NCBI GenBank assembly: GCA_030765185.1
Contig: JAVCDE010000024.1
Location: 251,538-315,537, forward strand
Reading direction: 5' to 3'
Source of the DNA: Candidatus Aceula meridiana
GTDB lineage: Bacteria; Omnitrophota; Gorgyraeia; Zapsychrales; Aceulaceae
DNA: 64,000 nucleotides
Both the position numbers and the translations under genes were made by a program. The notes beneath the pieces are model-generated. The model was given only the letters and a program-made list of their open reading frames with translations. It searched no databases and was not told the DNA's origin. Positions 5,751 to 63,971 of the stretch are shown piece by piece (the stretch's first letter is position 1; each line of letters begins with the position of its first letter).

Positions 5751-5807
5751 CCGTTAAAAAGAAAGAAGAAGAGCGGTTTGAAGAAAATTCTTCAAACCGC
5801 TCTTCTT
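5751..5807 (-). terminator. Rho-independent terminator of the metY-pspC transcript
   Basis: Perfect 17-bp inverted repeat AAGAAGAGCGGTTTGAA / TTCAAACCGCTCTTCTT at 5766-5782 and 5791-5807. A U-tract follows on the minus-strand RNA (plus-strand CCGTTAAAAAGAAAG at 5751-5765), immediately 3' of the pspC stop. Confidence 0.75.
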
Positions 5808-5828
5808 TAATACAAATATTAATATTTG

Positions 5829-15260: not shown

Positions 15261-15304
15261 AGAAAAGAAAAAAGGCCAGTCCCCGCTAACAGTGGGAACT
15301 GGCC
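15261..15304 (-). terminator. Rho-independent terminator after cspA
   Basis: AAGGCCAGTCCCC/.../GGGAACTGGCCTT stem (one mismatch) at 15271-15304, followed on the minus RNA by UUUUCUUUUC. Confidence 0.7.
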
Positions 15305-15333
15305 TTTCTCTTATCTATATGTCTGTTTAATCC

Positions 15334-26191: not shown

Positions 26192-26562
26192 GGCTTTTCC
26201 TCTTTTCCGATAACTGCTTTTAAAATAATATCATCCCCTTTAAGAGTTACAACATCGGCTTTTATGCATTTGGGACATAAAAAATTATCTAGCTCAGGGG
26301 TAAATTCTTCTTTGCAAAGGTTGCACTTAGCAAGGGCTGATATCTCGGTTATTTTAAGGACTGCGTTCTCTGCGATAGTACCTTTGATGACGGCCTTAAA
26401 AGCCTCTTGCATCACATCAGGAATAATCTGCTTCAGATATCCTGTTTCAATTTCAACTTCATCAACGCATACGATGCTGTTTTCTTTGGCTACAGATATA
26501 ATCTGCTCAATCAGGCTTTCAGCGATAGACATCTCGTGCATATTTACCTTTGGATATCGCAA
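26188..26562 (-). CDS. hypA: Hydrogenase nickel insertion protein HypA
   Basis: N-terminal MHE; zinc finger CNLC...CPKC; 124 aa. Confidence 0.9.
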   Translation of the reverse strand: MRYPKVNMHEMSIAESLIEQIISVAKENSIVCVDEVEIETGYLKQIIPDVMQEAFKAVIKGTIAENAVLKITEISALAKCNLCKEEFTPELDNFLCPKCIKADVVTLKGDDIILKAVIGKEEKP

Positions 26563-27170
26563 AAAAGCGATAAAAACTCAATGGTTAAGTCAATGTCCCG
26601 GACAACAATATTCTTGGGAACCGTAATAGACGTTGGTGCAAAATTAATGATGCCTTTAAGTCCACCAAGCACAATAACGTCTGCGACTTCTTGAGAATAT
26701 TCTTCAGGAACGGCAATAATTCCAATTTCACTATGCGTCTTTTTAATAATCTGAGGAGCTTTGCCAATAGCATAAACTGGCACATCATTAATCTTCTTGA
26801 TAATTTTCCGCTTATCATTATCAAAAGCAGCCATAATCTTAATACGATCTTTTTGAAACCCAGGGTATTTTAAAATCGCTGAGCCTAAATTTCCAACTCC
26901 AAAAAGAACCGCATGAACCACATTGCCTTGAAGAACAAAACGCTCTAAAATGTCACGCAATTCAATTGTTTTATAGCCAATGCGTGGAGTGCCAACTTTC
27001 CCAAACTTTGAAATGTCTTTACGAATTTGCACATCTGAGAAACCTGTCATTGTGGCAAGCTCTGAAGACGAAACAAGATAACGCTTGGCCTTAATGAGCC
27101 CTTCAAGAGTACGAATATATAAAAGGGCACGCTCAATTGTTCTTTTCGGAATTTTCTTCATAAATTTCAT
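26544..27170 (-). CDS. rex: Redox-sensing transcriptional repressor Rex
   Basis: Winged helix (SSELATMTGFSDVQIRKDISKFG) plus Rossmann NAD(H) domain (VLFGVGNLGSAIL); 208 aa. Overlaps the hypA start by 19 nt. Confidence 0.9.
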   Translation of the reverse strand: MKFMKKIPKRTIERALLYIRTLEGLIKAKRYLVSSSELATMTGFSDVQIRKDISKFGKVGTPRIGYKTIELRDILERFVLQGNVVHAVLFGVGNLGSAILKYPGFQKDRIKIMAAFDNDKRKIIKKINDVPVYAIGKAPQIIKKTHSEIGIIAVPEEYSQEVADVIVLGGLKGIINFAPTSITVPKNIVVRDIDLTIEFLSLFCDIQR

Positions 27171-27171
27171 A

Positions 27172-27213
27172 AAATAAATAGCCTCCTTTTTTTTTGCAGG
27201 AGGCTATTTATTT
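27172..27213 (-). terminator. 16-bp perfect hairpin (terminator-like) after the nikM-like gene that embeds the rex Shine-Dalgarno
   Basis: AAATAAATAGCCTCCT / loop TTTTTTTTGC / AGGAGGCTATTTATTT. The right arm AGGAGG is the rex RBS, 11 nt before the rex start codon. Confidence 0.6.
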
Positions 27214-27228
27214 GCTTCAATATAATTC

Positions 27229-28137
27229 TTAGGCAACTGATCGGCTCAATGAATGCAAACCCTTACCTAAAACCCATGCAAAAGCAAACGTGATCAATGC
27301 GCCGGCCAAGCCCGCCAACCCAACGCTTATCATTTGATGAGAAATGACCGGAATTGCATAATCCGGCATGGGGCTAACAAATGCTGGCGCGCTTTCATGT
27401 AGAAACTGATATTTCTGAGCGACCCATTCCAATCCATCCGGCCAACCACTCGCAAAAGGACTTAGCATAGCCGCAATAACCATGGCGGCGGCCGCAGGAG
27501 CGGCAACAGCCCACCTTGTCCGGATAAGCCCTTCTTGAGCAAAAAAAGGAAGGGCTATCAAAGTGATGGTCGCTTCCCCAATTCCAATAAGTGCATGCGT
27601 GCTCAACATTGCGCCGGACACTTGAGTAAACGCAACCGTTCCCGAAACAGCCAGTTCAACACTACAGGCCAGGGCTGCCAATAGAGTCGACACCCAAGCG
27701 GCAAGCCCAATTCCGATGCCCCGCTGAAAGACCGTCCGCCCTTCTTTTTGAAGGAAATACTGATAGAAAAAACCGCCCGCACCAGCGCCAAGCACCGCCA
27801 TATTTAAAATATTGGCCCCAAGGACCGCGAGCCCCCCATCGGAAAAAACAAGACATTGAACGGTCAAAACCAGCGCGACCGCTAGGACTCCAAAAGGAAT
27901 CCCAAGCAATGCGGAAGCCAAAACACCCCCTAATAGATGCCCGGATGTTCCGCTCTGGATGGGGAAATTCATCATCTGTCCTGCAAAAATTAATGCGGTA
28001 ACTGCCGCAAACCTGGCGGCAGAAGGCTTATTGCTTATTTTTGTTGCGGCATAAGCCGCACCCGCTAAGCTTATCGTGCTCACGGCTGCCGTAACCGGGC
28101 AAATGGCACCATGCAGCATGCTGCTAGGAATATGCAT
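27229..28137 (-). CDS. CbiM/NikM-family Ni/Co ECF-transporter metal-capture component with C-terminal PDGLE domain
   Basis: NFPIQSGTSGHLLGGVLASALLG...GGLAVLGANILNMAV matches CbiM/NikM. The start was moved to the second ATG to give an MHIP N-terminus (Met1-His2 metal ligands), consistent with the AAGGAG SD. C-terminal SGWPDGLEWV is the PDGLE domain signature. GC content is clearly higher than neighbouring genes. Confidence 0.8.
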   Translation of the reverse strand: MHIPSSMLHGAICPVTAAVSTISLAGAAYAATKISNKPSAARFAAVTALIFAGQMMNFPIQSGTSGHLLGGVLASALLGIPFGVLAVALVLTVQCLVFSDGGLAVLGANILNMAVLGAGAGGFFYQYFLQKEGRTVFQRGIGIGLAAWVSTLLAALACSVELAVSGTVAFTQVSGAMLSTHALIGIGEATITLIALPFFAQEGLIRTRWAVAAPAAAAMVIAAMLSPFASGWPDGLEWVAQKYQFLHESAPAFVSPMPDYAIPVISHQMISVGLAGLAGALITFAFAWVLGKGLHSLSRSVA

Positions 28138-28168
28138 CTTCATCTCCTTTTAAAAATATAATTTAAAT

Positions 28169-30591: not shown

Positions 30592-32601
30592 TTAGAATTC
30601 AAAACTTGCACCTCCCACATAGTTGCGCCCGGGTGCGGGATAAAATCCCATATCTCCTGCCCCGGAAGAATAGACTCCATAAGCATCGTGTTCGCGGTCA
30701 AACACATTCTTAACGCCAAACCAAACATCAATCCCCTTCCACTTGTAATCAACCTTAAAATCAAATGTAATAAACGAGTTTAACTTAGGCTGATTATTGT
30801 TCTGATCACTTATTGCAAAACGTTTATCAATCCACGCCAAAGAAATAGTTGTCTGCAGCCCGTCGAGAGGACTTACTGTCACACCAGAAGAAATTTTATT
30901 CTTAGGGACAAACGGTACTTTGTTCCCCCCGTACTCTCCTCCTTTAAAAAAAGCATCCTGCCAGGTCCAATGAATAAAAGGTTGAAAAAGCCCATCAAAA
31001 AAATCTGTTTTTCCCTCAACCTCAAACCCCCAATGGCGCGTCTTTGGCACATAATTAGAATTCTGAAAGGTTACAGGATCAAAATAAATTTCATTCTCAA
31101 TATCCATAAAGAAAAAATTGGCACCTGTCTTAACCCATGAAAAAGAAATATCTCGAATACCAAATTCATAATTATGGCCGACTTGATGCTTAAGGCTTGT
31201 GTTCAGCCCCCCTCCGCTACCCCACACATATTGCCACTTATTTTGATAGAATTCATCCGTAGCCGGAAGCCTCAACGATCGGCTGTAATCAAAATAAATT
31301 TGAGAATTCTTATTGTATTTGTATCCAAGCCCAAAATTCATTGACCCATCGGTGATAGATTTTCTTTCTTTATTCGCTACAACAGCGATTTGGTCAAACA
31401 GATATTCTGCCCGTGTTGCCCTTCCTCCGAAATTAATGAGAAACTTATCAAAAAGCTGCATCCTCTCTAAAGCGTAAAATTCATAAGTTTGTTTTATGAT
31501 ACCTGTAAAATCTTGAGCTGAGACCTGATTGCCAGAACGTACTTTATCTTTTGCGTAAAAAAAGTCGACCCCAGCGGTAAGATTGTTATTAAATCCTTCT
31601 TCCGCGCTGCTTTCTATCTCAAACTTTGGGCGTGATTCGATGCTTTGAATCTGATGAGATGTTTCATAATTTCCAAAGCTCGAGACATTAAGGCCCTTGT
31701 TATAGCGCTTACGATAAGAATTAAACCAAGAAAATTTTGCATCACTTCCCCCTATGTCAAAATCAATCTCAGGCTCAGCATTCACAAAAACATCAGACGT
31801 CCACCCTCGGTCATTGGCATGCGTCGTCCCTGTCCGGCCAACGGTTGCAATATCCGAGGCAAAGAGTGCACCCGGCTGACCATACTTGTCGCGATGGTAT
31901 CCAGAGGAAAAATTCAACGCAAAGCTGTCCGTTAAGCTTGTCGATAAATTTCCAAAATAATCATTAGCCCAGTAGTCTCCATTAGAACGATAACCGGATG
32001 TCTGCTCATGAGCATAACTCAAGAAATAATCCATATTCTTAAACGTTGAGCCATTGGAAATCATTTCCTTGTGATATTGATAACTTCCGACTTCTGTCCG
32101 TATTTTTGTGGGCGCGCTAGCATCACGATGCCCTTTTTTTGTGATGATGTTAATAACCCCGGCAGAAGCGTTGTCTCCATAAAGAACTGTTGATGCCCCT
32201 CTTAAAATTTCAACACGCTCAACAGAATCTAAACTTATTTGACCCCAATCTACACCGGATAGATCAACCTGATTGGTTCTTCTTCCATCCACTAAAACAA
32301 GAATATTGGCGTTACTAGTCTCACCAAATCCGCGAATATCAACACTAATACCTTTTGGATTATTTAATTGGTTATTAACAACAATCCCGCTGCGCGTATT
32401 AATAAGTTCCGGGATAGATGTTGCGCTCGATTTCTCAATATCATCAGAAGTAATAATACTCACGCCCTTGCTGATATCAGAAGCCAGAAGACTCGTGCGA
32501 CTCGTTAAGACATTGATAGTTCCTAAGTCTAAAAGCTCTTCAGCATGGACCGGCAAAGATATAAAAAATAAAAATCCAATGACGACAAAAACTCTTTTCA
32601 C
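30592..32601 (-). CDS. btuB: TonB-dependent outer-membrane receptor (BtuB-like, given the cobalamin riboswitch leader); GTG start
   Basis: Signal peptide; plug domain; C-terminal GGASFEF ending in Phe; 669 aa. The reverse complement at the start reads AGGAGGaaaaaGTG. Confidence 0.8.
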   Translation of the reverse strand: MKRVFVVIGFLFFISLPVHAEELLDLGTINVLTSRTSLLASDISKGVSIITSDDIEKSSATSIPELINTRSGIVVNNQLNNPKGISVDIRGFGETSNANILVLVDGRRTNQVDLSGVDWGQISLDSVERVEILRGASTVLYGDNASAGVINIITKKGHRDASAPTKIRTEVGSYQYHKEMISNGSTFKNMDYFLSYAHEQTSGYRSNGDYWANDYFGNLSTSLTDSFALNFSSGYHRDKYGQPGALFASDIATVGRTGTTHANDRGWTSDVFVNAEPEIDFDIGGSDAKFSWFNSYRKRYNKGLNVSSFGNYETSHQIQSIESRPKFEIESSAEEGFNNNLTAGVDFFYAKDKVRSGNQVSAQDFTGIIKQTYEFYALERMQLFDKFLINFGGRATRAEYLFDQIAVVANKERKSITDGSMNFGLGYKYNKNSQIYFDYSRSLRLPATDEFYQNKWQYVWGSGGGLNTSLKHQVGHNYEFGIRDISFSWVKTGANFFFMDIENEIYFDPVTFQNSNYVPKTRHWGFEVEGKTDFFDGLFQPFIHWTWQDAFFKGGEYGGNKVPFVPKNKISSGVTVSPLDGLQTTISLAWIDKRFAISDQNNNQPKLNSFITFDFKVDYKWKGIDVWFGVKNVFDREHDAYGVYSSGAGDMGFYPAPGRNYVGGASFEF

Positions 32602-32611
32602 TTTTTCCTCC

Positions 32612-32848
32612 TAAAATAAATGCCCTCCCGGCCGCATACTTCGCAGCTGGGAGGGCATCCTCGTTATAACTCTCAACTTTATATATTCTCTGCATTGTCC
32701 TTACGCAATACAGTTGAATAAAATTTAATTCTTAGGATAAGGCATTCTGGCTCTTTTGATTTTTCAACCAAAATTACAGCAGCGGGACTGCTTCGGAATC
32801 TCACCGAATTTCCCTTATTAAGACCTAATAAATAGGCCACCTAAAAGT
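32612..32848 (-). ncRNA. Cobalamin (B12) riboswitch with terminator-type expression platform
   Basis: The minus-strand RNA contains GGUGGCC...AAUAAGGGAAAUUCGGUGAGAUUCCGAAGCAGUCCCGCUGCUGUAA, matching the consensus AAnAGGGAA..GGUGnnAnUCC..GCnGnCCCGCnACUGUAA. A B12-box-like GAGCCAGAAUGCC follows. A terminator hairpin GCCCUCCC...GGGAGGGC followed by AUUUAUUUU sits just 5' of the RBS. Confidence 0.65.
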
Positions 32849-32850
32849 CT

Positions 32851-33420
32851 CTAAAGAACAAACGCCAAGCGTGTATTTTTAACGCGCGCAGCAATAATTT
32901 CATAAACTCCAAAAAGTGCAACGCTATAAACCAATGTGCTTGCCAGCGTAGAACGGAAAAATGGAATAGCCATCATATAGCAAGTGGTAAGGCCTTCAAA
33001 AGTTGGCGGATAATACCCGGCGAGCCAAAATCCAAAATTGGTCACAATAAAAAACACAACAGCAGAAACCAAACTTGTGCCTGCTATGCCAAGCCAATTC
33101 TTGTTCTTACGCAGCTTAAGCCCTAGCACTGATACCAAAATAAGGCTTCCCCAAGTAAAAAGCATCATAGAGTGTATCCCTAAAATAATATCTGTTACCA
33201 CCATCAAAAAAATAGGAAGTAAAAGAGCGTATTTTTTATCAAGATAAACACCGCCAAACAAAATAAGCGCAATGACAGGGGTAAAATTTGGCACATGTGC
33301 GATTACTCTCGCAAAAAAACCAAGAAGCAACAAAAATAAAACTAACATATTATCTCCCTTTTTTAATTTTGTACTGATTATAGTGTCATCTAAAGATAAT
33401 CGCAACAAAAAAATGCCCAA
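32851..33420 (-). CDS. Polytopic small membrane protein (5 TM), function unknown
   Basis: Hydrophobic profile; likely start at MLVLFLLLLGFF. Last gene of the HK-REC operon; its stop abuts the riboswitch 5' end. Confidence 0.5.
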   Translation of the reverse strand: MGIFLLRLSLDDTIISTKLKKGDNMLVLFLLLLGFFARVIAHVPNFTPVIALILFGGVYLDKKYALLLPIFLMVVTDIILGIHSMMLFTWGSLILVSVLGLKLRKNKNWLGIAGTSLVSAVVFFIVTNFGFWLAGYYPPTFEGLTTCYMMAIPFFRSTLASTLVYSVALFGVYEIIAARVKNTRLAFVL

Positions 33421-47014: not shown

Positions 47015-47052
47015 AAAAGAGCCCCGTCAAAAGACGGGGCTCTTTTGCTTTC
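47015..47052 (+). terminator. Rho-independent terminator of the ferredoxin gene (probably bidirectional, also serving phoH2)
   Basis: AAAAGAGCCCCGTC / aaaa / GACGGGGCTCTTTT, a 14-bp perfect stem, followed by TGCTTTCTC. Confidence 0.85.
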
Positions 47053-53369: not shown

Positions 53370-54239
53370 TTATTCTAAACAAATAAAAAAACATTCTCCG
53401 GAATTAATGTCAATGGCTAATTCATTGCCCGGATCAAGCTCAAAAGCCTTGTTTATTAATTCTTCGTATTTTTTCATGTCCCCTTTTTTCTTATAAATCT
53501 GGGCAAGCCGCACATAGGGATTAGCAAAAAGTGGGTCTGCTGCAATGGCTTTTTCTAAATACCCTTGAGCTTTATCAAAATTTTGGCCAAGCGCAACCGA
53601 AACAAGCATGTAATAACTTCCTAACCCAAAATTAACAACCGGTGAATCAGGAGCAAGTTTTTGAATAATGTTAAGATGCTTTAAAACCCCTGCTCCGTTG
53701 ATGGCCTTTGAAATCGGGCCACCATAATGAGCAATCATGCCCTTGGCCGCAGCATAAAGTCCGTGCGCTCTTAGGAAATTTGCCTCATCGACATTCTCCC
53801 GGCGCTGATTAATGACTTGGCCGGTTAACCGAATGCTCCCATCAAAATCTTTTTGAATATACCGAATATATGCTAATGTAATCAATGCCGGCGAATAGCT
53901 GGAATTTTCTTTAATAATTTTCTCGAGCATGCCTGCCGCCTCATCTGTTTTATGTTCTCGCCTTAAAATCTCAGCTATTCCCCAGCGCCCCTCAATGCTT
54001 TTGGGGTCAAGTTCTAAAACTTTTTCAAAGACTGCTTTAGAATTTTGTATTTCATAAAAGTTTAAATAGACAAGGCCTAAAACATAAAGATGGTCTATAG
54101 AATTGGGATTTTGGGCAAGTTCTTCTTGCGCTGTCGCAAGGTCAATTAAGTCAGCCTTGTTATGTAAATCTTTCCATTCAAGCGCAAAGCACGAGGTTAC
54201 CAACAAGAAAAAAACTAATAAAATTCCTAAAGTTTTCAT
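53370..54239 (-). CDS. Secreted tetratricopeptide-repeat protein
   Basis: Signal peptide MKTLGILLVFFLLVTSCFA; several TPR units. Confidence 0.75.
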   Translation of the reverse strand: MKTLGILLVFFLLVTSCFALEWKDLHNKADLIDLATAQEELAQNPNSIDHLYVLGLVYLNFYEIQNSKAVFEKVLELDPKSIEGRWGIAEILRREHKTDEAAGMLEKIIKENSSYSPALITLAYIRYIQKDFDGSIRLTGQVINQRRENVDEANFLRAHGLYAAAKGMIAHYGGPISKAINGAGVLKHLNIIQKLAPDSPVVNFGLGSYYMLVSVALGQNFDKAQGYLEKAIAADPLFANPYVRLAQIYKKKGDMKKYEELINKAFELDPGNELAIDINSGECFFICLE

Positions 54240-55537
54240 TCTTGTTCTCTTCTCGGGTCTTTTAAAAACTGAACAATATCTTTTTTAAAGAAGAGCGCCA
54301 AGACCCAGGAAATCCAGACGCGTTTTTTCTTTTCCAAGCGAGGCAGCTTCATTAAATAAACATCACGCCATAAAAGCCATGCCAAAAGGCCTTTAATCTT
54401 AATCCCAAAAATTGACGCAACCCCTTTAAAGCCTCCGATGTTGGCCAGCTGGCCCAAGGATTGAAACGTAAAAAGTTTTTTAGGTTGATTTTTAATCTCA
54501 GCGATAAGATTTTGAGCTAATGCTTTTGCCTCACGTGTAGCGTGTTGAGCCGTCGGAGGATGAGCCCCTCCATTTTGAGTATTGGGAACATACGCGCAAT
54601 CGCCTAAAGCCCATACTCCCTGATGGTCCGGCACCTGAAAATATTTATCGATAATAACGCGGCCTTTTTCTTTAGATAAACCTAAAGCATCAACAACAGG
54701 GCTAATGGTATTGCCAGCTGTCCAAATAATATTGGAAGAATCGACAACCTCATCTGTGCTTAAACCCACCTTGTTATCTGAAAAATCAACAACCTTTGTA
54801 TTCAACTTTATTTCAATTCCTCTTTTTTCAAAAGCTCTTTGGGTATAAACGCCTAAATCCTGATCCATTTCAGGTAAAAGCGTATCCCCCGGATGGATTA
54901 AAACCATGCGCAGCATTTGTTTTGTTAAATTTGGATACCAACAAATAGCGTCTTTGGCCAGGTCATCAACTGCCCCCATGGTTTCTACGCCGGTAAATCC
55001 GCCGCCGGCGACAACAAAAGTTAGAATCTTTTTTTGTAAGCCTTTGTCTTTTATGGAATCAGCTTGCTCAAGGCAGCTAATAATACGGTTTCGAATGGCA
55101 ATGCCATCATGTAAGCTTTTCATCGTGAGAGCGCCTTGCTCTAAATTCTTATTGCCAAAAAAGTTTGGCACAGCCCCTAACGCCAATACCACGTGATCGT
55201 AAGAAATTTCTCTCCTGGAAGATTCAAGGAAAATTTTCCTTACCTTTAGGTCAGCGGAAACAACTTCCGCTTTGATGAATTTTGTATATCTTAAAAGCTT
55301 GCGAAGAGGATTGGCAATGCTGATGCCACCTAAACTGCTCGAGGCAACCTCGTGTAGCATAGGCGTAAAAAGGAAGAAATTCTCTTTGTCGATAAGCGTT
55401 ATCTCGGCGGGCAAACCCTTTTTAACGGCTTTCTCAAGCTCAAGAGCCGTATAGAGCCCTGAAAAGCCGCCGCCTAAAATAACAATTTCTTGTAAGTTTG
55501 ATGAGGGCATTCTTATTTTTGCTTTCGAAGGTGGCAA
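54236..55537 (-). CDS. Type II NADH:quinone oxidoreductase (NDH-2)
   Basis: IVILGGGFSGLYTALEL and VVAGGGFTGVETMGAV dinucleotide folds; C-terminal amphipathic membrane anchor; 433 aa. Confidence 0.85.
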   Translation of the reverse strand: MPPSKAKIRMPSSNLQEIVILGGGFSGLYTALELEKAVKKGLPAEITLIDKENFFLFTPMLHEVASSSLGGISIANPLRKLLRYTKFIKAEVVSADLKVRKIFLESSRREISYDHVVLALGAVPNFFGNKNLEQGALTMKSLHDGIAIRNRIISCLEQADSIKDKGLQKKILTFVVAGGGFTGVETMGAVDDLAKDAICWYPNLTKQMLRMVLIHPGDTLLPEMDQDLGVYTQRAFEKRGIEIKLNTKVVDFSDNKVGLSTDEVVDSSNIIWTAGNTISPVVDALGLSKEKGRVIIDKYFQVPDHQGVWALGDCAYVPNTQNGGAHPPTAQHATREAKALAQNLIAEIKNQPKKLFTFQSLGQLANIGGFKGVASIFGIKIKGLLAWLLWRDVYLMKLPRLEKKKRVWISWVLALFFKKDIVQFLKDPRREQE

Positions 55538-55962
55538 ATAATTCCGTCTAAAGATAGCTTTCCGCTGCCATATTGCAAAAAGACAAACGCGCTTAGGGCA
55601 ATCATTGCCGGATAATAAAAATCATCAGGATGAACTTTGGCAACCGCAACAATCATAATAATGATAACAGGAACAGCTGCGATACGGCTTAAAAACCCAA
55701 TAGCGAGAAGCCCGCCGCAAATAATTTCTGACCACCCGACAACATAGGCCATCATCTTAGGAAATATAATTCCTAGCGTCGATAAATATCCTCCAAAAGC
55801 AGCCAAACCCGGCCCGTCAAACATGCCATATACTTTTCCTAATCCTGCTTTAATGAAAATCCAAGCCACAAAAAGTCTTAATATCCCAATGCTCCATCCG
55901 GTATAAAAACAGCATTTCCCGTTCGTCTCGTGTGTCATTTTCTCCTCCTTCAATGAAGCCAT
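55513..55962 (-). CDS. DoxX-family membrane protein (true start likely the second ATG at about 55938, behind GAAGGAGG)
   Basis: DoxX fold LRLFVAWIFIKAGLGKV...; 4 TM. Confidence 0.8.
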   Translation of the reverse strand: MASLKEEKMTHETNGKCCFYTGWSIGILRLFVAWIFIKAGLGKVYGMFDGPGLAAFGGYLSTLGIIFPKMMAYVVGWSEIICGGLLAIGFLSRIAAVPVIIIMIVAVAKVHPDDFYYPAMIALSAFVFLQYGSGKLSLDGIICHLRKQK

Positions 55963-56032
55963 AGTTTACGGAGCAACAGCGGTCGTAAACTATATGGCTG
56001 AATTGATCCCGTGCACGTAAGTGCATCGGGAT
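55962..56032 (-). promoter_or_regulatory. Structured 5' leader element, copy B, upstream of DoxX
   Basis: Hairpin 1 is ATCCCGTGCAC/gtaa/GTGCATCGGGAT at 56006-56032 with the same bulged T as copy A. Hairpin 2 is TAGTTTACG...CGTAAACTA at 55962-55992. The 13-nt spacing between hairpins is identical in both copies. Confidence 0.55.
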
Positions 56033-56037
56033 TTCCT

Positions 56038-57444
56038 CTATTTAAAACAATACGGATCTTTGTCTTTTAAAATATCTTTTTTGCAACCGCTTGTAACCGC
56101 TAAGCATCCTCCGCACGCATGACGCAAAGAACATCCATCGCATTCTTTGGCCCCTCTGCGATATCTTTTTGCCATCTTTGAATCATAAATTTCTTGAAGG
56201 CTCTGTTTTAAAATATTTCCTATCAAAGACGGAAACTTGCGGCAGGCATGCACTTCTCCGTCGGCGAGAACAGCTACAAAATTAAATGCAGCGCCGCACC
56301 CAAACCCTGTACAGCCACTAAACAGTTTATCATTCTCACGCTCTAAAACAATATTAATTAAATTATCTTTAAAACCTATAATCGGATTTGTCTCTGACGC
56401 TTTGATATATTCCTCTAAAAACCGCTGATAATCTTCTTTTTTCGGAAGCCCTAAACCCTCCCCCTCTCCTGTTTGCGACAAACGATTAAATGTAAAATAT
56501 TCTGCATGCCCTCTAAGTTTCTTAGCTAAAGGTAGAATCTGGCTCATATTCTCTTTTGTCAAAGTCAGCATCACCGCAGAAGAAATCTTTAACTCTCTTA
56601 AAATCTTTAAAAACTTTATCACAGCGCTAAAATTATTTTTTCCTCGAATATAATCGTTATGTTCAGGTAACCCTTCCAGGCTAACCTGGTAATATCCGGG
56701 CTTTTGAATCTCAATAACTTTTTTTAAATCTTCCCTTGAAACAGGATTGCCTAAAATAGATGTTGAAAATCCCTTTTGCTCAGCTCTTTTATAAAGTTTA
56801 AAGAAATGAGGAGATAAAAATGGATTCCCTCCTGAGAAACAGACATGCCCTCGGACGCGGTTTGTCCGAGTAAAGCGCTCGAGGCCATCAAGAACCTTAT
56901 ACCCTTGCTCTAATGTAAAAGGTGAACGTCTTGTTCTGTCGTAGCAATGTTTGCAATGCAAATCGCAAACATTCGTAATATGCCATTGCAGGGTGAATGT
57001 ATCAGAAATAATAAATTTTTGATCAATATTCTTTGTATTCTTAAAAATTCGCGTATTTCGTTTTAGCTTTGGCGTTGGCTTTAAAATGATTCCTTTTTTT
57101 GCGGCTCTTTTTAAGTTTAACTCAAGCGCCTTAACGGAGATGTTTCCTTGTTGCGCGGCTTGTTCTAGAGAAATATTTTCAGCCACCATTTTAAGCGCTA
57201 AAAGTTCTTCTTTTGAAGCCGGCTTAGCTTGAATACTTACGTCTCCTTGTTTTTTCCAAACAAGAAGCCATTCTTTTTGTTTTTTAGGATTCGTTCGTGA
57301 TTGTGAAAATTTCCAATTGGAGAGAAAAATTTCCAAGGTAGGATTGATTTGGAAATTGTTTACCTTTTTAGGCCAGTGCGGCTTTAGAGAGAAAACTTTT
57401 CTTTCAAGCTTTTCAAGTTTTTGAAGTTCTTTAGTAAAATCCAT
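56038..57444 (-). CDS. Radical SAM / SPASM-domain enzyme with a 150-aa N-terminal extension carrying a sigma70-region-4-like HTH (candidate peptide/protein-modifying maturase)
   Basis: HITNVCDLHCKHCY (CxxxCxxC) at about residue 160. C-terminal SPASM Cys array GCTGFGC...HAC...ECDGCSLRHACGGC...SGC...YCF. N-terminal ISLEQAAQQGNISVKALELNLKRAAKKG resembles a region-4/RRE-like helix-turn-helix. Confidence 0.8.
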   Translation of the reverse strand: MDFTKELQKLEKLERKVFSLKPHWPKKVNNFQINPTLEIFLSNWKFSQSRTNPKKQKEWLLVWKKQGDVSIQAKPASKEELLALKMVAENISLEQAAQQGNISVKALELNLKRAAKKGIILKPTPKLKRNTRIFKNTKNIDQKFIISDTFTLQWHITNVCDLHCKHCYDRTRRSPFTLEQGYKVLDGLERFTRTNRVRGHVCFSGGNPFLSPHFFKLYKRAEQKGFSTSILGNPVSREDLKKVIEIQKPGYYQVSLEGLPEHNDYIRGKNNFSAVIKFLKILRELKISSAVMLTLTKENMSQILPLAKKLRGHAEYFTFNRLSQTGEGEGLGLPKKEDYQRFLEEYIKASETNPIIGFKDNLINIVLERENDKLFSGCTGFGCGAAFNFVAVLADGEVHACRKFPSLIGNILKQSLQEIYDSKMAKRYRRGAKECDGCSLRHACGGCLAVTSGCKKDILKDKDPYCFK

Positions 57445-57456
57445 AATATAGTAATA

Positions 57457-57487
57457 AAGGGCCCCCGCTTAATCAGCGGGGGCCCTT
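57457..57487 (-). terminator. Very strong GC hairpin (partial terminator or attenuator) between the Cys/Met-rich protein gene and the rSAM gene
   Basis: AAGGGCCCCCGC / ttaatca / GCGGGGGCCCTT, a 12-bp perfect stem. U-rich sequence follows on both strands. The rSAM start 13 nt downstream has no purine-rich SD. Confidence 0.65.
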
Positions 57488-57512
57488 GTTTCATGCATTT
57501 CTTTCTAAGATT

Positions 57513-57956
57513 TTATTTTCCGCAGGAGCCTTTACCGCAAGAAGATTTGGCATCTTCATCCATCTCTTCGTCTTCAGTCATTACATCTTCCTCTCCCATC
57601 ATCTCCCCTTCGTCCATATCCTCATCTTCGCCCACCATTCCATTTTCGCCCATATCCTCGTCTTCAGCTGCCATTTCTTCCTCGCCCATGGCTTCATCAT
57701 CTGCCATCATTTCGTCTTGTTCAACCATTTCATCTTCAGCGGCTTCTTGAGCAACAGCTTCTTTTTCAGCAGCTTCCATTTTTGCCCCACAAGAACCTTT
57801 ACCGCAAGAAGCTGTTCCTTCTTCAGCAGCCTTACCACAAGAACCTTTGCCGCAACTCCCCTTACCGGCAAAAACGTCTTTAACAACGCCAAAGCTTGCC
57901 ACAAGGCTTGCGATGCTAATCCCTGTTAAAATCTTTTTAATTTTTCTCTTGTCCAT
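57513..57956 (-). CDS. Sec-secreted 147-aa protein: three SCGKGSCG repeats (6 Cys) flanking a hyper-acidic, periodically Met-rich 90-aa core; candidate rSAM substrate and/or periplasmic Cu/Ag-binding protein
   Basis: Signal peptide MDKRKIKKILTGISIASLVASFGVVKDVFA. Mature protein GKGSCGKGSCGK...ASCGKGSCG...(E/D-x-M heptad-like repeats)...SCGKGSCGK. Strong RBS GAGGAGG and its own consensus promoter. Confidence 0.75.
   Translation of the reverse strand: MDKRKIKKILTGISIASLVASFGVVKDVFAGKGSCGKGSCGKAAEEGTASCGKGSCGAKMEAAEKEAVAQEAAEDEMVEQDEMMADDEAMGEEEMAAEDEDMGENGMVGEDEDMDEGEMMGEEDVMTEDEEMDEDAKSSCGKGSCGK
57520..57860 (-). repeat. Intragenic direct DNA repeats (three copies of the about 25-nt Cys-motif-encoding unit; short-period CATCTTC-type repeats in the acidic core)
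   Basis: ccacaagaacctttaccgcaagaag, ccacaagaacctttgccgcaact and ccgcaggagcctttaccgcaagaag recur at 57786-57810, 57835-57857 and 57520-57545. Confidence 0.6.
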
Positions 57957-57972
57957 CTGTTCCTCCTCATTA

Positions 57973-58039
57973 ATCCCGCGCGCGGGACTTTCTTGGTTTA
58001 TAATAAAGCAATTATACCAACTGCCCTAACGGTGTCAAT
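57973..58039 (-). promoter_or_regulatory. Consensus sigma70 promoter TTGACA-16-TATAAT (minus strand) followed by a 14-bp perfect GC palindrome TCCCGCGCGCGGGA in the 5' UTR of the Cys/Met-rich protein gene
   Basis: -35 at 58034-58039 and -10 at 58012-58017 (reverse complement). Palindrome at 57973-57986, about 20 nt before the RBS. Confidence 0.6.
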
Positions 58040-58066
58040 TGGTTTCACGCCTATCAGGATTATCTC

Positions 58067-61000
58067 TTAAGATTGCTCTTTTTGTAATTTTCGCTCTTTC
58101 ATCCAGCTATATAAAACAGGAACAAGAATTAAATTAGCTGCTGTTGCCGTCAGCAACCCTCCTACGGTCGGCGCGGCCATCGGCTTCATGACCTCTGAGC
58201 CTGTTCCGCTTGAGAACATTACAGGCATTAAGGCAATAATCGTTGTCATGGTTGTCATAAGGGCTGGGCGTACCCTCTGAAGGCCAGCCCTTATGACAGT
58301 CTGGCGTATTTCTTCAATTGTTTTTGGCAATTTTTCCTTAAATAAATTCTCTAAAGTTGAAAGCAACACAACCGCATTATCTGTCGCGACTCCAAAAAGT
58401 GCAATAAAACCAACCCATACGGCTGTAGAAAATCGAAAATTCAAAAGAAACAAAAGAATAACACCGCCGGTAAGCGAAAGCGGCAATACCGCAGTTAAAA
58501 TCCCTAAAATTTTTATGTCTTTAAATGCCATGTACAGCAAAACTAAAATAACCATTAAGGCAAGCGCCATCGAAGGCAACAAGCGCTTTCTCGATTCCAT
58601 CTCAGCTTCAAATTGCCCCGACCAGCTGATAAAGTATCCGGTAGGAATTTTAAGATTCCCTCGGCTTATCTCTTTCTGAACAGTTTCTTGCGCTTTCTTA
58701 ACAAAATCAACCAACCCAATCTGGCTTTGATTCACATTAATAAAAACGCGGCCATAAGGCACCGTGTTTTCCGAAAAAATCATCGACGGTCCGGCAACAG
58801 TTTTAAATTCCGCTAATTGAGCCAAAGGAATTTGCGCAGGCTTAGGCGCGTTACGCCAATGCCAACGGGTCGGCACAAAAATTCTCTTTAAGGCTTCTGG
58901 ATCATCGCGAAGCTCCCGCAGATACCGGACTCTCACCGGATACCGCTCTCGGCCCTCCACCGTGGTTGTGATATTCATCCCCCCGATGCCTGACATAATT
59001 AAGTCCTGAATATCTTGAACATGGATACCATAACGCGCTGCCTGCGGGCGGTCAATCTCAATCTCAAAATAAGGGCGCCCGCCGATGCGCTCAGCGTAAG
59101 GCGAGACCGCACCCTCAACACGGCCAACAATCTGTTCGAGTTGAATACCGATTTTCTCGATTTCTTTTAAATCCGGCCCAAAAACCTTAATCCCGACGGG
59201 CGTCTGAATGCCTGTTGCGAGCATATCAATGCGGTTGCGAATCGGTTGCGTCATAATAGGACTGACACCCGGCATTTTTGTTTTTTGCTGGATTTCATCG
59301 ATAATTTTCTCCCGGGTCATCCCTTTACGCCAATACTTTTTATTTTTAAGGTGGATAATTGTTTCAATCATTGTCACCGGGGCCGGGTCCGTGGCCGTTT
59401 CGGCGCGCCCCAGCTTTCCGACAACACCCTCAACTTCAGGAATTTCATTTTTAATAATGATATCCTGCTTTTGCATCACATCCGCGACTTGCGTCAGAGA
59501 AGCGCCAGGAAGCAAGACAGGCATAAACAACAAATCGCCTTCGTTTAAAGGCGGCATGAATTCTTGTTTCATTAGCACGCTGAAAATAAGCCCCACGGTA
59601 AAGACCGCTAACGCAATAAAAACAATCACGCGTTTATGTATCAAAGCCCAGCCTAGCAAGGGCTTGTATTTTCCATGTAAATATTTAGCGGTTTTATTTT
59701 CTTCAACGGGTTTTAGCTTTCCCTTTAACGCAAAATAGCTTAACGTCGGCAAAAGCGTTAAAGCAATAATCGCGGCGGCCACCATGACAAAAGTTTTGGT
59801 ATAAGCAAGAGGGCTAAAAAGTTTTCCGGCCTGCCCGGTTAAAACAAAAACCGGAATAAAACTAACAATCGTCGTTAAAAGGGCAAAAAGCACAGGCCGG
59901 CCCACTTCGCCTGCCGCGTCACTGCAGATCTTTAACCGGTTTTCTGAAGTCAGGTTTTCTGTCGAGTGCTCGGAGAGCTTGCTGTAGATATTTTCGACCA
60001 TGACGCAACCCGAGTCGACCATAACGCCGATAGCAATCGCGATGCCACCTAAAGACATAATATTGGCATCCACGCCAAATTGCTTCATAAAAATAAACGC
60101 AATCAAAATACCAATCGGCAAAACAGCCGCAATGACAAGGCTCCCCCAAAAATGAAGAAGAAAAACAACAATCACAAAAATTGTAATAATAATTTCCTGA
60201 ATGAGTGCGCTAGAAAGCGTATGAATAGAGCGATGGATAAGTCCTGTGCGGTCATAAAAAGGAACAATCTTCATCCCCTTAGGAAGTCCGACTTCGATTT
60301 CCTGAATTTTTTTCTTTACTCTCTCAATAACTTTTAAAGGATTTTCGCCGTAGCGCATGACCACAACTCCGCCGGTGGCTTCCCTACCTTCTTTATCCAA
60401 AACACCTCTTCGAAAATCCGCCCCTAAGGCTACACGTCCGATGTCTTTAATGGTCACGGGCGTTCCCGCATGCACGCCGATGACAATATCTTCGATATCT
60501 TTAATGCTTTTAATAAAACCGAGGCCGCGTACAACATATTCGACGCTATTTTGCTCAAAGACTTTTGCGCCCACGTCAATATTGGATAACTTGATCGCCT
60601 CCATAACGTGCAAAAGGCTGACGTCATAAGCAAATAATTTGTTCGGGTCGACATCCACCTGATATTGCTTGACGTACCCACCGACGGAAGCCACTTCGGA
60701 GACACCTTCAACGCTCGTCAATTGATAGCGGACATACCAATCTTGGATAGAACGCAATTCTTCCAAGGAATACCCATCGCCCTCAACCGTATACCAGAAA
60801 ATCTGACCCAAGGCCGTCGCATCCGGCCCTAAAGAAACACTGACATCTTTAGGAATATTTTTTTTAGCTAAATCAAGTCGCTCTAAAACACGTGTTCGGG
60901 CCCAGTAATAATCTGTCCCTTCTCGAAAAATCATATTAACCAAGCCAAAGCCAAAACCAGACGACGAACGAACCACTTTGACTTTCGGCGTTCCCATGAG

Positions 61001-61216
61001 CCCTGTTGTCAAAGGATAGATCACTTGGTCCTCAACATCCTGTGGGCTGCGCCCTGGCCAGTCTGCATATACAATAACCTGAAGCTCGCCGATATCCGGA
61101 ATTGCATCAACAGGGGTTTCTTTCATGGAAGAAAACCCTAGAATCATCATCAACACAAAAACCGATAAAACAAGAAATCGATTACGGATACATGTTTCAA
61201 TAATGCGATTAATCAT
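58067..61216 (-). CDS. cusA: Heavy-metal efflux RND pump, CusA/CzcA family
   Basis: 1049 aa, 12 TM, HME-RND architecture. Context csoR-cusC-cusB-cusA. Confidence 0.88.
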   Translation of the reverse strand: MINRIIETCIRNRFLVLSVFVLMMILGFSSMKETPVDAIPDIGELQVIVYADWPGRSPQDVEDQVIYPLTTGLMGTPKVKVVRSSSGFGFGLVNMIFREGTDYYWARTRVLERLDLAKKNIPKDVSVSLGPDATALGQIFWYTVEGDGYSLEELRSIQDWYVRYQLTSVEGVSEVASVGGYVKQYQVDVDPNKLFAYDVSLLHVMEAIKLSNIDVGAKVFEQNSVEYVVRGLGFIKSIKDIEDIVIGVHAGTPVTIKDIGRVALGADFRRGVLDKEGREATGGVVVMRYGENPLKVIERVKKKIQEIEVGLPKGMKIVPFYDRTGLIHRSIHTLSSALIQEIIITIFVIVVFLLHFWGSLVIAAVLPIGILIAFIFMKQFGVDANIMSLGGIAIAIGVMVDSGCVMVENIYSKLSEHSTENLTSENRLKICSDAAGEVGRPVLFALLTTIVSFIPVFVLTGQAGKLFSPLAYTKTFVMVAAAIIALTLLPTLSYFALKGKLKPVEENKTAKYLHGKYKPLLGWALIHKRVIVFIALAVFTVGLIFSVLMKQEFMPPLNEGDLLFMPVLLPGASLTQVADVMQKQDIIIKNEIPEVEGVVGKLGRAETATDPAPVTMIETIIHLKNKKYWRKGMTREKIIDEIQQKTKMPGVSPIMTQPIRNRIDMLATGIQTPVGIKVFGPDLKEIEKIGIQLEQIVGRVEGAVSPYAERIGGRPYFEIEIDRPQAARYGIHVQDIQDLIMSGIGGMNITTTVEGRERYPVRVRYLRELRDDPEALKRIFVPTRWHWRNAPKPAQIPLAQLAEFKTVAGPSMIFSENTVPYGRVFINVNQSQIGLVDFVKKAQETVQKEISRGNLKIPTGYFISWSGQFEAEMESRKRLLPSMALALMVILVLLYMAFKDIKILGILTAVLPLSLTGGVILLFLLNFRFSTAVWVGFIALFGVATDNAVVLLSTLENLFKEKLPKTIEEIRQTVIRAGLQRVRPALMTTMTTIIALMPVMFSSGTGSEVMKPMAAPTVGGLLTATAANLILVPVLYSWMKERKLQKEQS

Positions 61217-61237
61217 GTTCTCTCCTTAAAAATATTA

Positions 61238-62410
61238 CTACATTTGCATTCCGGGCATTCCGGGCATCGCGGAAGCCGCTGGTTGCTTTTTCTCATTACC
61301 CAAGGCCCCGGAAAAAGCCGAAGACGCAACCCCGGTAATTTGACTTTGAGAATCAATCAAAAAATTACCTTGCGTGACGACCCGCTCCCCTTCGTTTAAT
61401 CCTTTTAAAACCGGATAAAATTTTCTTGGATTATCCGAATGGTCAATGGCTTCAGGCCCCACAGTAACTTTACGCCCCTCGAATTGCCCATCACCTTTAT
61501 CAACCCATACAATTTGTCGCCGACCGGTATCCAAAAGCGCGCTTTTAGGAATAGATAAAACGTCCATATTCCCGTTATCGTCTTGATACTGGCTCATAAT
61601 TTCAATATCAACATACATTTCCGGTTTTAATTTTTTCTCCGGATTATCGACCAAGGCGCGAAAACGAACAGACCGAGTCTGAGGATCAACCACAGGATTA
61701 AGGGAAACAACTTTTCCGTAAAACTCTTCTCCTGCCAAGCTCAAAGGGCTCACCTTAACATAAGCGCCTTCTTTAACCCAGTTAAGTTCATATTCATAGA
61801 CATCACCATAAATCCACATCTTGTCTCCCGGCAAAACCAAATTGTTTTGAACTTTTTTTGATTTTTGCAGGCCATCAATTTGTTCCTGGCTTAGGCCCAT
61901 CAAAAGAAGCTTGCGCTGCGAAGAGTCCACCAAAGATTTGGCCCTATCCACGATTTCTTCAATGCCGCCGGAAAGAGCTTTTTCGTAAGATTGAACTGAA
62001 GAAATAAATTCATCCTGTGCAACGGCTAACTGCGGGTCATAGGCAACGCGCCCAACAGCCCGAATTTCCTTAAAAAGCTGCCGCTTTTCAATAGGCTCGG
62101 TTTTAACGCCGGCCAACTTTAATTCAGAGGCCTTAAGCGCAACCTGGCTTATGACATTTTCATCCGATGTCTCCATGTTCATGCTTGACTTTATTACCGG
62201 CATTAACGGCATAAAACAAATCGGACACTTCGTATCCCCTTTTTCATAGTTTTCAACCGTCACCTTAACGCTCGGATGCATGCCGCAAGTATAATAAGAT
62301 ATCGGCTCATCAAGACCTTGATGGTTCACATGATTCTGTTGAGCGAATAGTTGCGTTGAAAACATCAACGTAAAAAGAATGACGAGAGCAACCCTTATAA
62401 TCTTTTCCAT
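61238..62410 (-). CDS. cusB: RND membrane-fusion adaptor (CusB-like) with N-terminal YTCGMHP heavy-metal-binding domain and Met-rich C-terminal tail
   Basis: YYTCGMHPSVKV...CPICFMPLMP (HMBD). C-terminal AMPGMPGMQM. Confidence 0.85.
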   Translation of the reverse strand: MEKIIRVALVILFTLMFSTQLFAQQNHVNHQGLDEPISYYTCGMHPSVKVTVENYEKGDTKCPICFMPLMPVIKSSMNMETSDENVISQVALKASELKLAGVKTEPIEKRQLFKEIRAVGRVAYDPQLAVAQDEFISSVQSYEKALSGGIEEIVDRAKSLVDSSQRKLLLMGLSQEQIDGLQKSKKVQNNLVLPGDKMWIYGDVYEYELNWVKEGAYVKVSPLSLAGEEFYGKVVSLNPVVDPQTRSVRFRALVDNPEKKLKPEMYVDIEIMSQYQDDNGNMDVLSIPKSALLDTGRRQIVWVDKGDGQFEGRKVTVGPEAIDHSDNPRKFYPVLKGLNEGERVVTQGNFLIDSQSQITGVASSAFSGALGNEKKQPAASAMPGMPGMQM

Positions 62411-62419
62411 TTCTCCTCC

Positions 62420-63691
62420 TTATAAATCTCTTCCAACCATTTGTTCTAAATAAGCAATTGCTTTTCGATAATCAACAATCGATTTATAATACGCCAAACG
62501 CGTCTGAAGATATGTCCGCTCGGCATCAAGCCAATCAATAAAAGAAATTCCGCTGGTTTCAAACCCTGTCTGTGAACCGTCAAAAGCCTGTTTGGCCTGA
62601 GGCAACAGGGCTGTTTCATATAAAAGGACGACGTCCTTGTAGGCTATAATTTTAAAATAAGCGTCCTTCACTTCAAGTTCAGCTTGATTTTCGACTTGCT
62701 CTTTATTTTTTTGAGCTGATTTTAATTGAGCCTCTTTTTCTTTGACTTGAGCATCTAATTTCCAAAACCATATCGGAACATTAACCGAAACCATAGCTGC
62801 CCAGGCATCCTGTCCGTCATCCATAGAAGTCGTCGTGCCGCTGCCGATTTCGATATATTCTGCCCCGATCGTAAAATTCGGCAAATATGCCATCTTCGAT
62901 AAAGTTTTTTCCTTCTGGGCCTTTTCAAATAAGAAATCAGCTTCGATTAAATCCTGACGGGTTTCTTTTGCATATCCTAACAATTCATCAAGATTATAAG
63001 AGAAGGAAATGTTCTTTAACGATAAAACCTTATTGATTTCTCCGCCTGAGGGGTTGTTGATTAGGGTATTAAGTTTTACGCTTAGACTTTCTCTGTTCTG
63101 CTTTAACAAAAATATCTTCTGAAGAATTTTAGAAAGTTCCACCTGGATCTTAAGAATGTTTTGTTGCGTTCCAAGGTTAGACTCGTATTTCTTCTGAGCC
63201 GAGCCCTCTAAATCTTCCAGGATAGATTTTTCTTCTTCGTTTATTTCGATTGATTTATCTACCCAAAATAAATCATAGTAAGTAGCTTTTACCTGGGCAA
63301 TAATGGCACGTCTTGCTTTTTCATATTCTTGTTCAAGCATCTTGGCCTGCGCGGCCTGGGCCTTTCCCTTTAAGCTTAATTTTCCCGGGAAAGGAATCTT
63401 TTGAGAAACATTGAATTTTTGCTCCTGCGGCCCCACGCGGGTTTGCACTTCTTCGCCAAAATAGGTATAACCGACCATCGGATCGTCTAAAGCGCTAATG
63501 CTTTGCGTTTTGTATTGTTCGGCCTTCCACTTCTGATAAACCTGCTGGATTTGTGGATTGTTTTCTAAGGCCTCCTGAACAAAGCGGTCAAGAATGCTTT
63601 CTCCTTTATCCTGGCCAAAAGAAAAACAAGGCAAAAAAATTAAGCTTAGAATTGCTATAAAAATAAATTTAAAATAACGATTGGGATTCAT
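62420..63691 (-). CDS. cusC: Outer-membrane efflux channel (TolC/CusC family)
   Basis: Signal peptide; two OEP repeats; 423 aa. Confidence 0.85.
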   Translation of the reverse strand: MNPNRYFKFIFIAILSLIFLPCFSFGQDKGESILDRFVQEALENNPQIQQVYQKWKAEQYKTQSISALDDPMVGYTYFGEEVQTRVGPQEQKFNVSQKIPFPGKLSLKGKAQAAQAKMLEQEYEKARRAIIAQVKATYYDLFWVDKSIEINEEEKSILEDLEGSAQKKYESNLGTQQNILKIQVELSKILQKIFLLKQNRESLSVKLNTLINNPSGGEINKVLSLKNISFSYNLDELLGYAKETRQDLIEADFLFEKAQKEKTLSKMAYLPNFTIGAEYIEIGSGTTTSMDDGQDAWAAMVSVNVPIWFWKLDAQVKEKEAQLKSAQKNKEQVENQAELEVKDAYFKIIAYKDVVLLYETALLPQAKQAFDGSQTGFETSGISFIDWLDAERTYLQTRLAYYKSIVDYRKAIAYLEQMVGRDL

Positions 63692-63692
63692 T

Positions 63693-63971
63693 TTAACCCC
63701 CGCAATGTTTATTTAAAATGTTGATAACTTCGTTAATTTTCTCCTGCTTTTCAACTTGAGACTGGCCTTTAAGCGTATCAGCAACACAACTTTCTAAATG
63801 TTTTTGAAGAATCTTTTCCTTAACCCTACTGATTGCTTTTGTAACCGAACGAATTTGAATTAGTACGTCAATGCAATAGCGCCCTTCTTCAATCATTCCT
63901 TGGATACCGCGAACTTGTCCCTCAATTCTTTTAAGAGCATTAATCTGTTCTTTATGACTTGAATGTTTCAT
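63693..63971 (-). CDS. csoR: CsoR/RcnR-family metal-sensing repressor with a Cu(I)-type C-H-C ligand set
   Basis: KRIEGQVRGIQGMIEEGRYCIDVLIQ...KHLESC: Cys about 31 and His-x3-Cys as in CsoR; 92 aa. Confidence 0.85.
   Translation of the reverse strand: MKHSSHKEQINALKRIEGQVRGIQGMIEEGRYCIDVLIQIRSVTKAISRVKEKILQKHLESCVADTLKGQSQVEKQEKINEVINILNKHCGG

Follow-up and report, generated by a model that had tools for sequence, protein, structure and literature searches.

A 13-bp, GC-rich hairpin lies between sbtA, the gene for a small precursor protein, and sbtM, the gene for its radical SAM maturase. With slightly better than even confidence, we read it as a constitutively acting but leaky intrinsic terminator, doubling as a 3' stabiliser, that would give a high precursor:maturase ratio. 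The reading is built on the structure and position of the hairpin, its conservation, the identities of the genes, the lack of a promoter-like site between the two genes and the recurrence of terminator-like hairpins at this place in homologous operons, all of them observed. The whole stretch of DNA analysed, 64 kb in length, is called the window.

Structure and gene context of the hairpin

Positions of the hairpin and of the features around it are given in Table 1. The plus strand at 57457-57487 reads AAGGGCCCCCGC/TTAATCA/GCGGGGGCCCTT, and the minus-strand RNA, followed from 57487 to 57457, is 5'-AAGGGCCCCCGCU GAUUA AGCGGGGGCCCUU-3'. The stem consists of 13 perfect pairs, 10 of them G-C, around a loop of 5 nt; the first-pass annotation had described 12 bp and a 7-nt loop, but the loop is in fact closed by a T-A pair. 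From the TAA stop (57515-57513) of the small gene to the start of the hairpin there are 25 nt, as had been stated, and the hairpin's end is 12 nt, rather than 13 nt, from the ATG (57444) of the maturase gene. Judging from the ribosome footprint, 25 nt past a stop should be beyond melting reach, and the ribosome terminating on sbtA should therefore not melt the hairpin.

Table 1. Features of the sbtA-sbtM region and its surroundings in the window
Feature	Position	Strand	Description
CsoR-like repressor gene	63971..63693	-	
Sigma-70-type promoter of sbtA	58011..58038	-	TTGACA, 16 nt spacer, TG-TATAAT; 12/12 consensus positions
Small GC hairpin in sbtA 5' UTR	57974..57987	-	TCCCGCGCGCGGGA; just upstream of GAGGAGG Shine-Dalgarno
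sbtA	57513..57956	-	147 aa; signal peptide; five (G/S)SCG(K/A) motifs; acidic Met-rich linker; TAA stop
Hairpin	57457..57487	-	5' arm 57487-57475, loop GAUUA 57474-57470, 3' arm 57469-57457
U-rich tail	57445..57458	-	UUUAUUACUAUAUU; overlaps last two stem pairs, reaches sbtM ATG; no Shine-Dalgarno
sbtM	56038..57444	-	468 aa radical SAM/SPASM thio(seleno)oxazole maturase, TIGR04082
sbtM-doxX spacer	55963..56037	-	two further hairpins, dG −26.1, z −4.5
DoxX-family gene	55962..55513	-	downstream of sbtM; HvfX-like 61.8 bits, below cut-off 80
NDH2-like pyridine-nucleotide-disulfide oxidoreductase gene	55537..54236	-	downstream of DoxX gene

A folding-energy check bore out the hairpin that had been proposed at this place. 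Its dG was −29.4 kcal/mol, compared with −12.7 (±2.9) kcal/mol for dinucleotide shuffles (z = −5.7), and 0 of 200 shuffles equalled it. Within a 101-nt context the hairpin was retained in both the MFE and the centroid structures (z = −5.4). The anomalous GC-richness was likewise upheld, the 10-bp core of the stem being 100% GC in a window of 39.7% GC. The claim that this is the most stable hairpin in the window was not: scored in sliding windows of 45 nt, it comes third with −30.0 kcal/mol, behind 5764-5808 (−31.9 kcal/mol) and 32618-32662 (−31.2 kcal/mol). It does top the window in energy per nucleotide, and no other intergenic spacer of the window is as structured as that between sbtA and sbtM (−0.44 kcal/mol per nt).

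The stem-loop falls within the range of Rho-independent terminators (∼5-14 bp, a loop of 3-8 nt, on the transcribed strand). The tail that follows the stem is UUUAUUAC; of the 8 nt past the G-C core, 5 are U, and it has three consecutive U. A simple terminator scan did not list the site; it passed a looser criterion, and its terminator score was d = 41.6. Clear terminators elsewhere in the window scored 54.1 (47015-47046) and 49.5 (15266-15310). A search of 57300-58100 against Rfam gave no match at the gathering score, and in the sub-threshold matches (OrzO-P, the Thr and His leaders, Spot 42 and the rimP leader) only the terminator stems align to the palindrome.

Other structured elements were seen in the window. 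The only Rfam family to reach its gathering score anywhere in the 64 kb is a cobalamin riboswitch at 32718-32859 (minus strand; RF00174, 57.6 bits, gathering score 31.5); a strong terminator-like hairpin (32662-32618, minus strand) comes after it, just upstream of a 669-aa gene (32601..30592). A 16-bp hairpin at 27172-27213 (minus strand), 15 nt past the stop of 28143..27229 and 1 nt before the ATG of 27170..26544, contains the Shine-Dalgarno (SD) sequence of the latter gene (AGGAGG) in its 3' arm, and is thus another stem abutting a start codon.

The gene that had been called precursor-like proved to be SbtA (TIGR04081, 34.2 bits against a cut-off of 30.5) and the radical SAM gene to be SbtM, a radical SAM/SPASM maturase (668.6 bits against a cut-off of 350). 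An NCBI protein from a Candidatus Aceula meridiana (Omnitrophota) MAG, annotated as SbtM, matches the window SbtM at 100% identity. The two genes lie on the same strand, the precursor immediately upstream, with a spacer of 68 nt. SbtM has been found in vitro to convert Cys or Sec of its peptide substrate to thio- or seleno-oxazole (PMC11002830, section 14); the thiooxazole chemistry is known only in vitro and for a different SbtM (PMC11002830). By these model matches, SbtA and SbtM of the window are the known thio(seleno)oxazole RiPP system.

The five motifs of the window SbtA correspond to the SSUSG motifs of selenocysteine-type (Sec-type) homologues. The build of the protein is unusual: three of them (GSCG) follow the signal peptide at the N-terminus and two (SCGK) are C-terminal, with a linker of ∼85 aa, EDEMMG-like, in between. 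The SbtM proteins of the window and of its close relative, described below, lack ∼55 N-terminal residues of most homologues (520-540 aa); since there is an in-frame stop in the hairpin loop and the spacer is only 68 nt, the window has no room for the missing part. Of the 39 ORFs in the window that reach 150 aa, 38 lie on the minus strand.

Downstream of sbtM, the DoxX and oxidoreductase genes and a TPR protein gene follow with short spacers or overlaps. Upstream of sbtA (58067-63971, minus strand) lie the gene for the CsoR-like repressor and cusC/cusB/cusA-like heavy-metal efflux genes, of which the CusA/CzcA product matches TIGR00914 with 1026 bits. In a comparison over 82 loci, none but the window and two related contigs, L001 and L002, had the DoxX, oxidoreductase and TPR neighbours. 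Family-wide conservation of the DoxX, oxidoreductase and Cus neighbours was not found beyond these three; thus, the copper link is lineage-specific. The neighbourhood suggests that the window SbtA is a putative periplasmic copper-binding thiooxazole protein made via a radical SAM route, and its placement near copper genes echoes that of the copper-binding bufferin clusters, whose products are MNIO-made (PMC11626156). This lineage-specific site of sbtA, behind csoR-like and cusCBA-like genes and before a DoxX gene, is mildly new.

Precursor gene, hairpin and maturase gene follow one another as first described, on one strand and behind one promoter. That promoter lies upstream of sbtA, is conserved in L001 (TTGACACC..TGGTATAAT), and is followed by a 5' UTR with a small hairpin and then a strong SD sequence. 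An independent promoter for sbtM, which the first-pass annotation had counted as evidence against its reading, was not found: a scan for sigma-70-type promoters on the minus strand (57445-57956) gave none between the sbtA start and the sbtM start. A weak candidate picked out by eye in the 3' end of sbtA (TTGCGG, 19 nt spacer, TAAAAT) was rejected for its poor matches and its absence from L001. With no promoter between sbtA and sbtM, sbtM and the genes downstream would be transcribed solely via read-through of the hairpin; since these genes depend on read-through, the hairpin, if it terminates at all, must be leaky.

The hairpins of the sbtM-doxX spacer are missing from the corresponding spacer of L001, which is 22 nt long. 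The 5'-UTR hairpin of L001 (3018-3045; AATCCTGATGCACTTCGTGCATGGGGTT) is longer than that of the window; the outer stem is shared and the inner part is different. A near copy of it (AATCCCGATGCACTTACGTGCACGGGAT) is found at 56007-56031 of the window, in the sbtM-doxX spacer, and the 5'-UTR/spacer hairpin may be a small module that was duplicated or moved.

Conservation of the stem in a close relative

A search of 5.8 billion proteins gave one close relative of the window SbtM, P0002, at 83% identity, the next being at 57%. On its contig, L001, and on L002 the gene order is the same as in the window, and L001 has a hairpin at the same place. All 26 stem bases are identical (26/26), while the loop, GAC in L001 and GAUUA in the window, is 2 nt shorter and the 5' and 3' flanks of the hairpin are only ∼45% identical. 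At the 4-fold degenerate sites of sbtM the two sequences share 52% identity (71/137), from which the probability of 26/26 identical stem bases under drift alone is ∼4 × 10−8. Since the stem is fully identical against 52% at these sites, the alignment indicates that the stem is under strong purifying selection. The L001 tail (UUACUAUC) has a weaker U-tract than that of the window (d = 21.0). At L001 2880-2946, only the last ∼20 codons of cusA are left ahead of the conserved sbtA promoter; L001 seems to have lost the efflux operon by deletion, with the promoter, sbtA, the hairpin and sbtM kept.

Comparison of the window with L001 gave no compensatory changes, as 0 of the 13 pairs vary, and because the stem is invariant in a single close relative, covariation cannot separate RNA pairing from a sequence-specific constraint. 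An invariant stem without covariation, with the gene for a metal-sensing repressor in the same gene string, could also mark a sequence-specific binding site: a palindromic DNA operator, e.g. for the CsoR-like protein, or an RNA hairpin bound by a regulator. We consider such a site very improbable. The half-sites stand 2 bp further apart in the window than in L001, a shift that operators bound by dimers seldom allow; the element is located at the 3' end of a gene and not at a promoter; relatives have unrelated stems at the same position; and >120 unrelated metagenome contigs, most of them high in GC, contain the exact GC core with other loops and flanks. The 2-nt change in arm spacing favours a hairpin over a dimeric DNA operator. 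A CsoR-type operator in particular was rejected on this spacing change and on the location between a stop and a start codon, with no promoter-like site.

The contigs with the exact core have a median GC of 0.69. Since the core recurs among them with different loops and flanks, it is best described as a generic GC palindrome. A dispersed repeat (REP- or MITE-like) was likewise rejected, as the window has one copy in 64 kb and the core matches share no loops or flanks. The sole low-GC match (L155, 34% GC) lies in an unrelated locus, ∼30 nt past the stop of a thioredoxin-fold gene: its core, at 563-587, is GGGGCCCCCGC AUUCU GCGGGGGCCCC, a clear U-tract being absent. Other low-GC uncultured bacteria may therefore likewise use 3' hairpins of very high GC content whose U-tracts are poor.

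The invariance could, finally, reflect a sequence-specific RNA signal for a factor, e.g. a copper- or redox-responsive antiterminator or an RNA-binding protein, an idea we hold to be decidedly unlikely. If true, it would couple read-through into sbtM, doxX and the oxidoreductase gene to metal stress, and CsoR/CusCBA would be co-regulated with the maturation of a periplasmic copper-binding thiooxazole protein. The word 'attenuator' in the first-pass annotation finds no backing in its regulated sense: no competing antiterminator pairing was found near either arm. Regulated attenuation was accordingly set aside, neither arm having an alternative partner nearby, and an outer helix that would pair with the sbtM AUG in the window not being conserved in L001.

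Hairpins at other SbtM loci

The recurrence of the arrangement was assessed in 80 SbtM loci taken from species-representative genomes, in most of which SbtA was found upstream. The loci are of two types: Cys-type, whose precursors carry SCG motifs as in the window, and Sec-type, with up to five in-frame UGA in SSUSG motifs. Hairpins starting 5-60 nt past the true sbtA stop were scored, and those with d ≥ 0 were called terminator-like, where d combines the stem energy per length with a weighted U-tract, uses modern energy parameters and has an approximate zero point. The formula is reportedly that of d'Aubenton-Carafa et al. from 1990. L001 was left out of the Cys-type count as non-independent.

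A terminator-like hairpin was present in 8 of 18 Cys-type sbtA-sbtM loci and in 0 of 35 Sec-type loci. Other co-directional ORF pairs, which are mechanical ORFs and not annotated genes, had one in 5/60 cases within the same Cys-type loci (Fisher p = 0.0012 against the Cys-type count) and in 11/286 cases over all loci (p = 1.4 × 10−6). The feature is not universal in the family, being lacking in 10/18 Cys-type and 35/35 Sec-type loci. The contrast between the Cys-type and the Sec-type loci is a small and mildly new observation.

The positive loci come from Omnitrophota (L005, L006 and L011), KSB1 (L007), Chlorobium (L068), Calditrichaceae (L056) and an unclassified MAG (L009), with hairpins 25-41 nt past the sbtA stop. 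The stems of these hairpins do not resemble one another in sequence, and textbook U-tracts follow several of them: runs of 7-9 U occur in L009, L056 and L068, the L068 terminator being GCCCGCGUAAGCGGGC-UUUUUUUU and that of L009 a 14-bp stem followed by UUUUUUU. Compared with these Cys-type counterparts, the window hairpin has an unusually strong stem and a weak tail. The pattern indicates that a terminator between precursor and maturase is a recurrent feature, independently maintained in the Cys-type branch, of which the window hairpin appears to be the local version. The original proposal of a partial terminator favouring precursor over maturase is partly supported, by the genes, the arrangement and the recurrence (8/18 against 5/60), and weakened by the poor U-tract and by the failure of the simple scan to list the site. 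In L009 (2700-2836), the sbtA terminator is followed by a direct repeat (GGTGTATAACGTGGTGTAT, two copies), a TATAAT, an AGGAG SD sequence and sbtM, and there sbtM probably has its own, possibly regulated, promoter.

The same comparison bears on a pure mRNA-decay barrier, where no polymerase would stop, the polycistronic RNA would be degraded from the 3' end or following endonuclease cleavage, and the hairpin would only halt exonucleases, so that the sbtA segment outlives the sbtM segment. The very stable stem and the poor U-tract, particularly that of L001, speak for such a barrier, and the other non-terminator hairpins of the operon, in the 5' UTR and the two in the sbtM-doxX spacer, fit a segmental control of RNA stability. 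However, homologous operons have canonical terminators followed by 7-9 U at this place, which points to termination as the selected function, and we regard the pure barrier as possible, if rather doubtful. Termination and decay-blocking do not exclude each other.

The start region of sbtM offers a further alternative. No SD sequence was found in the 12 nt (UAUUACUAUAUU) between the stem and the sbtM ATG, while most window genes have a well-spaced one. The sole SD-like run near sbtM, GGGGG, lies inside the 3' arm, 17 nt upstream of the AUG; for cusC, a GGGGG at normal spacing is the SD. The stem might then be a translational brake on sbtM, sequestering this run, abutting the start and limiting ribosome loading, and it fits such a role that L006 and L056 likewise have no SD between hairpin and start. 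This is unlikely, since at 17 nt the GGGGG is too distant to act as an SD even when free, the outer helix that pairs with the AUG in the window is not shared by L001, and SD-like sequences do follow the terminators of L005, L068 and L009.

SECIS elements downstream of UGA have been described for the SbtA family (PMC11002830), and the hairpin might be a relic of one, from a Sec-type sbtA that turned Cys-type. Many homologues do carry 1-5 in-frame UGA in SSUSG, the counterpart of SCGK here, with small hairpins right after the last UGA; among those of Nitrospirota and Desulfobacterota, many have two to five in SSUSG repeats (e.g. L017, L019, L026 and L079) and appear to be multi-selenocysteine precursors. 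Bacterial SECIS have their apical loop ∼16-37 nt past the UGA. In the window, however, sbtA contains no in-frame UGA, its stop codon is TAA, and 47 nt separate the last Cys codon from the apical loop, a distance outside that range. A SECIS and a SECIS relic were both rejected for these reasons. The short hairpins after the last UGA of Sec-type loci, which are the putative SECIS, have 6-8 bp, contain AU and GU pairs and lie close to the UGA, against a GC stem of 13 bp here, and we find a relic scarcely credible.

Proposed function and comparison with known systems

In the proposed mechanism, transcription would start at the strong sbtA promoter, probably with some read-in from the cusCBA genes upstream. 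Past sbtA, the nascent RNA would fold into the stem, followed by the short U-rich tail, and a fraction of the polymerases would stop there, as at a leaky Rho-independent terminator. The hairpin, now 3'-terminal, would shield a ∼0.55-kb sbtA message from 3'-to-5' exonucleases, and this message, flanked by stems at its 5' and 3' ends, should be abundant. Polymerases that read through would yield a minor long message comprising sbtA, sbtM, doxX and the oxidoreductase gene, on which sbtM would be poorly translated, lacking an SD in the 12 nt before its start and with the GGGGG locked in the 3' arm. The net outcome would be a large excess of the SbtA substrate over the SbtM enzyme. What we infer is that polymerases terminate here and with what efficiency, that the hairpin stabilises the RNA, and that sbtM is weakly translated; a hairpin acting on stability alone, or one that occludes the translation of sbtM, would lead to the same excess of precursor.

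The model makes a concrete prediction for how SbtA/SbtM operons set their substrate:enzyme ratio. In heterologous expression of thio(seleno)oxazole RiPPs, a class that has received little study, keeping or removing the hairpin should alter maturase levels. The order of small ORF, terminator and maturase gene is also a possible cue for genome mining in the Cys-type branch.

The hairpin represents a familiar arrangement and no new kind of regulatory element. It resembles canonical Rho-independent terminators in its GC-rich 13-bp stem, short loop, U-rich tail and position 25 nt past a stop codon, and differs from them in having only three consecutive U, with the next gene 12 nt on and no promoter between. 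Because of this, full termination would silence sbtM and the later genes. Intercistronic decay-blocking hairpins, such as that of Rhodobacter capsulatus pufBA-LMX and the REP elements of malE-malF, similarly place a stable stem between cistrons, and there the upstream segment is longer-lived and gives a higher protein yield. Such hairpins need no U-tract and REP elements are dispersed repeats, whereas the sbtA hairpin is single-copy in 64 kb and its counterparts in relatives are terminator-like. The SECIS of Sec-type sbtA (PMC11002830, section 14) is also a hairpin in or just past the 3' end of sbtA; here the UGA is absent, the distance does not fit, and a far longer, GC-only stem is present.

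In gene order, the likeness named at the outset is to the subtilosin operon of Bacillus subtilis, where precursor gene, hairpin and radical SAM/SPASM maturase gene follow one another and are transcribed from the precursor's promoter. The original work on the sboA/sboX-albA stem-loop is reportedly that of Zheng et al. A terminator symbol is drawn at this place in a published map of the operon (PMC9217942 Fig. 3). The product there is a sactipeptide rather than a thio(seleno)oxazole, the phylum and the hairpin sequence differ too, and AlbA is a distant relative, the window SbtM scoring 54.8 bits against the AlbA model NF012164 (cut-off 850).

In the mccA-mccB pair of the microcin C operon, an intrinsic terminator between the genes for the precursor and the modifying enzyme has been shown experimentally (Zukher et al. 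2014, PMC4231749), and it lies in the spacer between the two genes, as in sbtA-sbtM. One upstream promoter there gives a short abundant precursor transcript and rare read-through, and the hairpin stabilises the short RNA (PMC4231749), an experimental precedent for the logic proposed for sbtA-sbtM. Termination in mcc is switched on by the ribosome on the 7-codon mccA ORF, which relieves an upstream antiterminating structure (PMC4231749). By comparison, sbtA has 147 codons and its stem has no alternative pairing partner, while the order of precursor gene, hairpin and modifying-enzyme gene behind a single upstream promoter is common to both.
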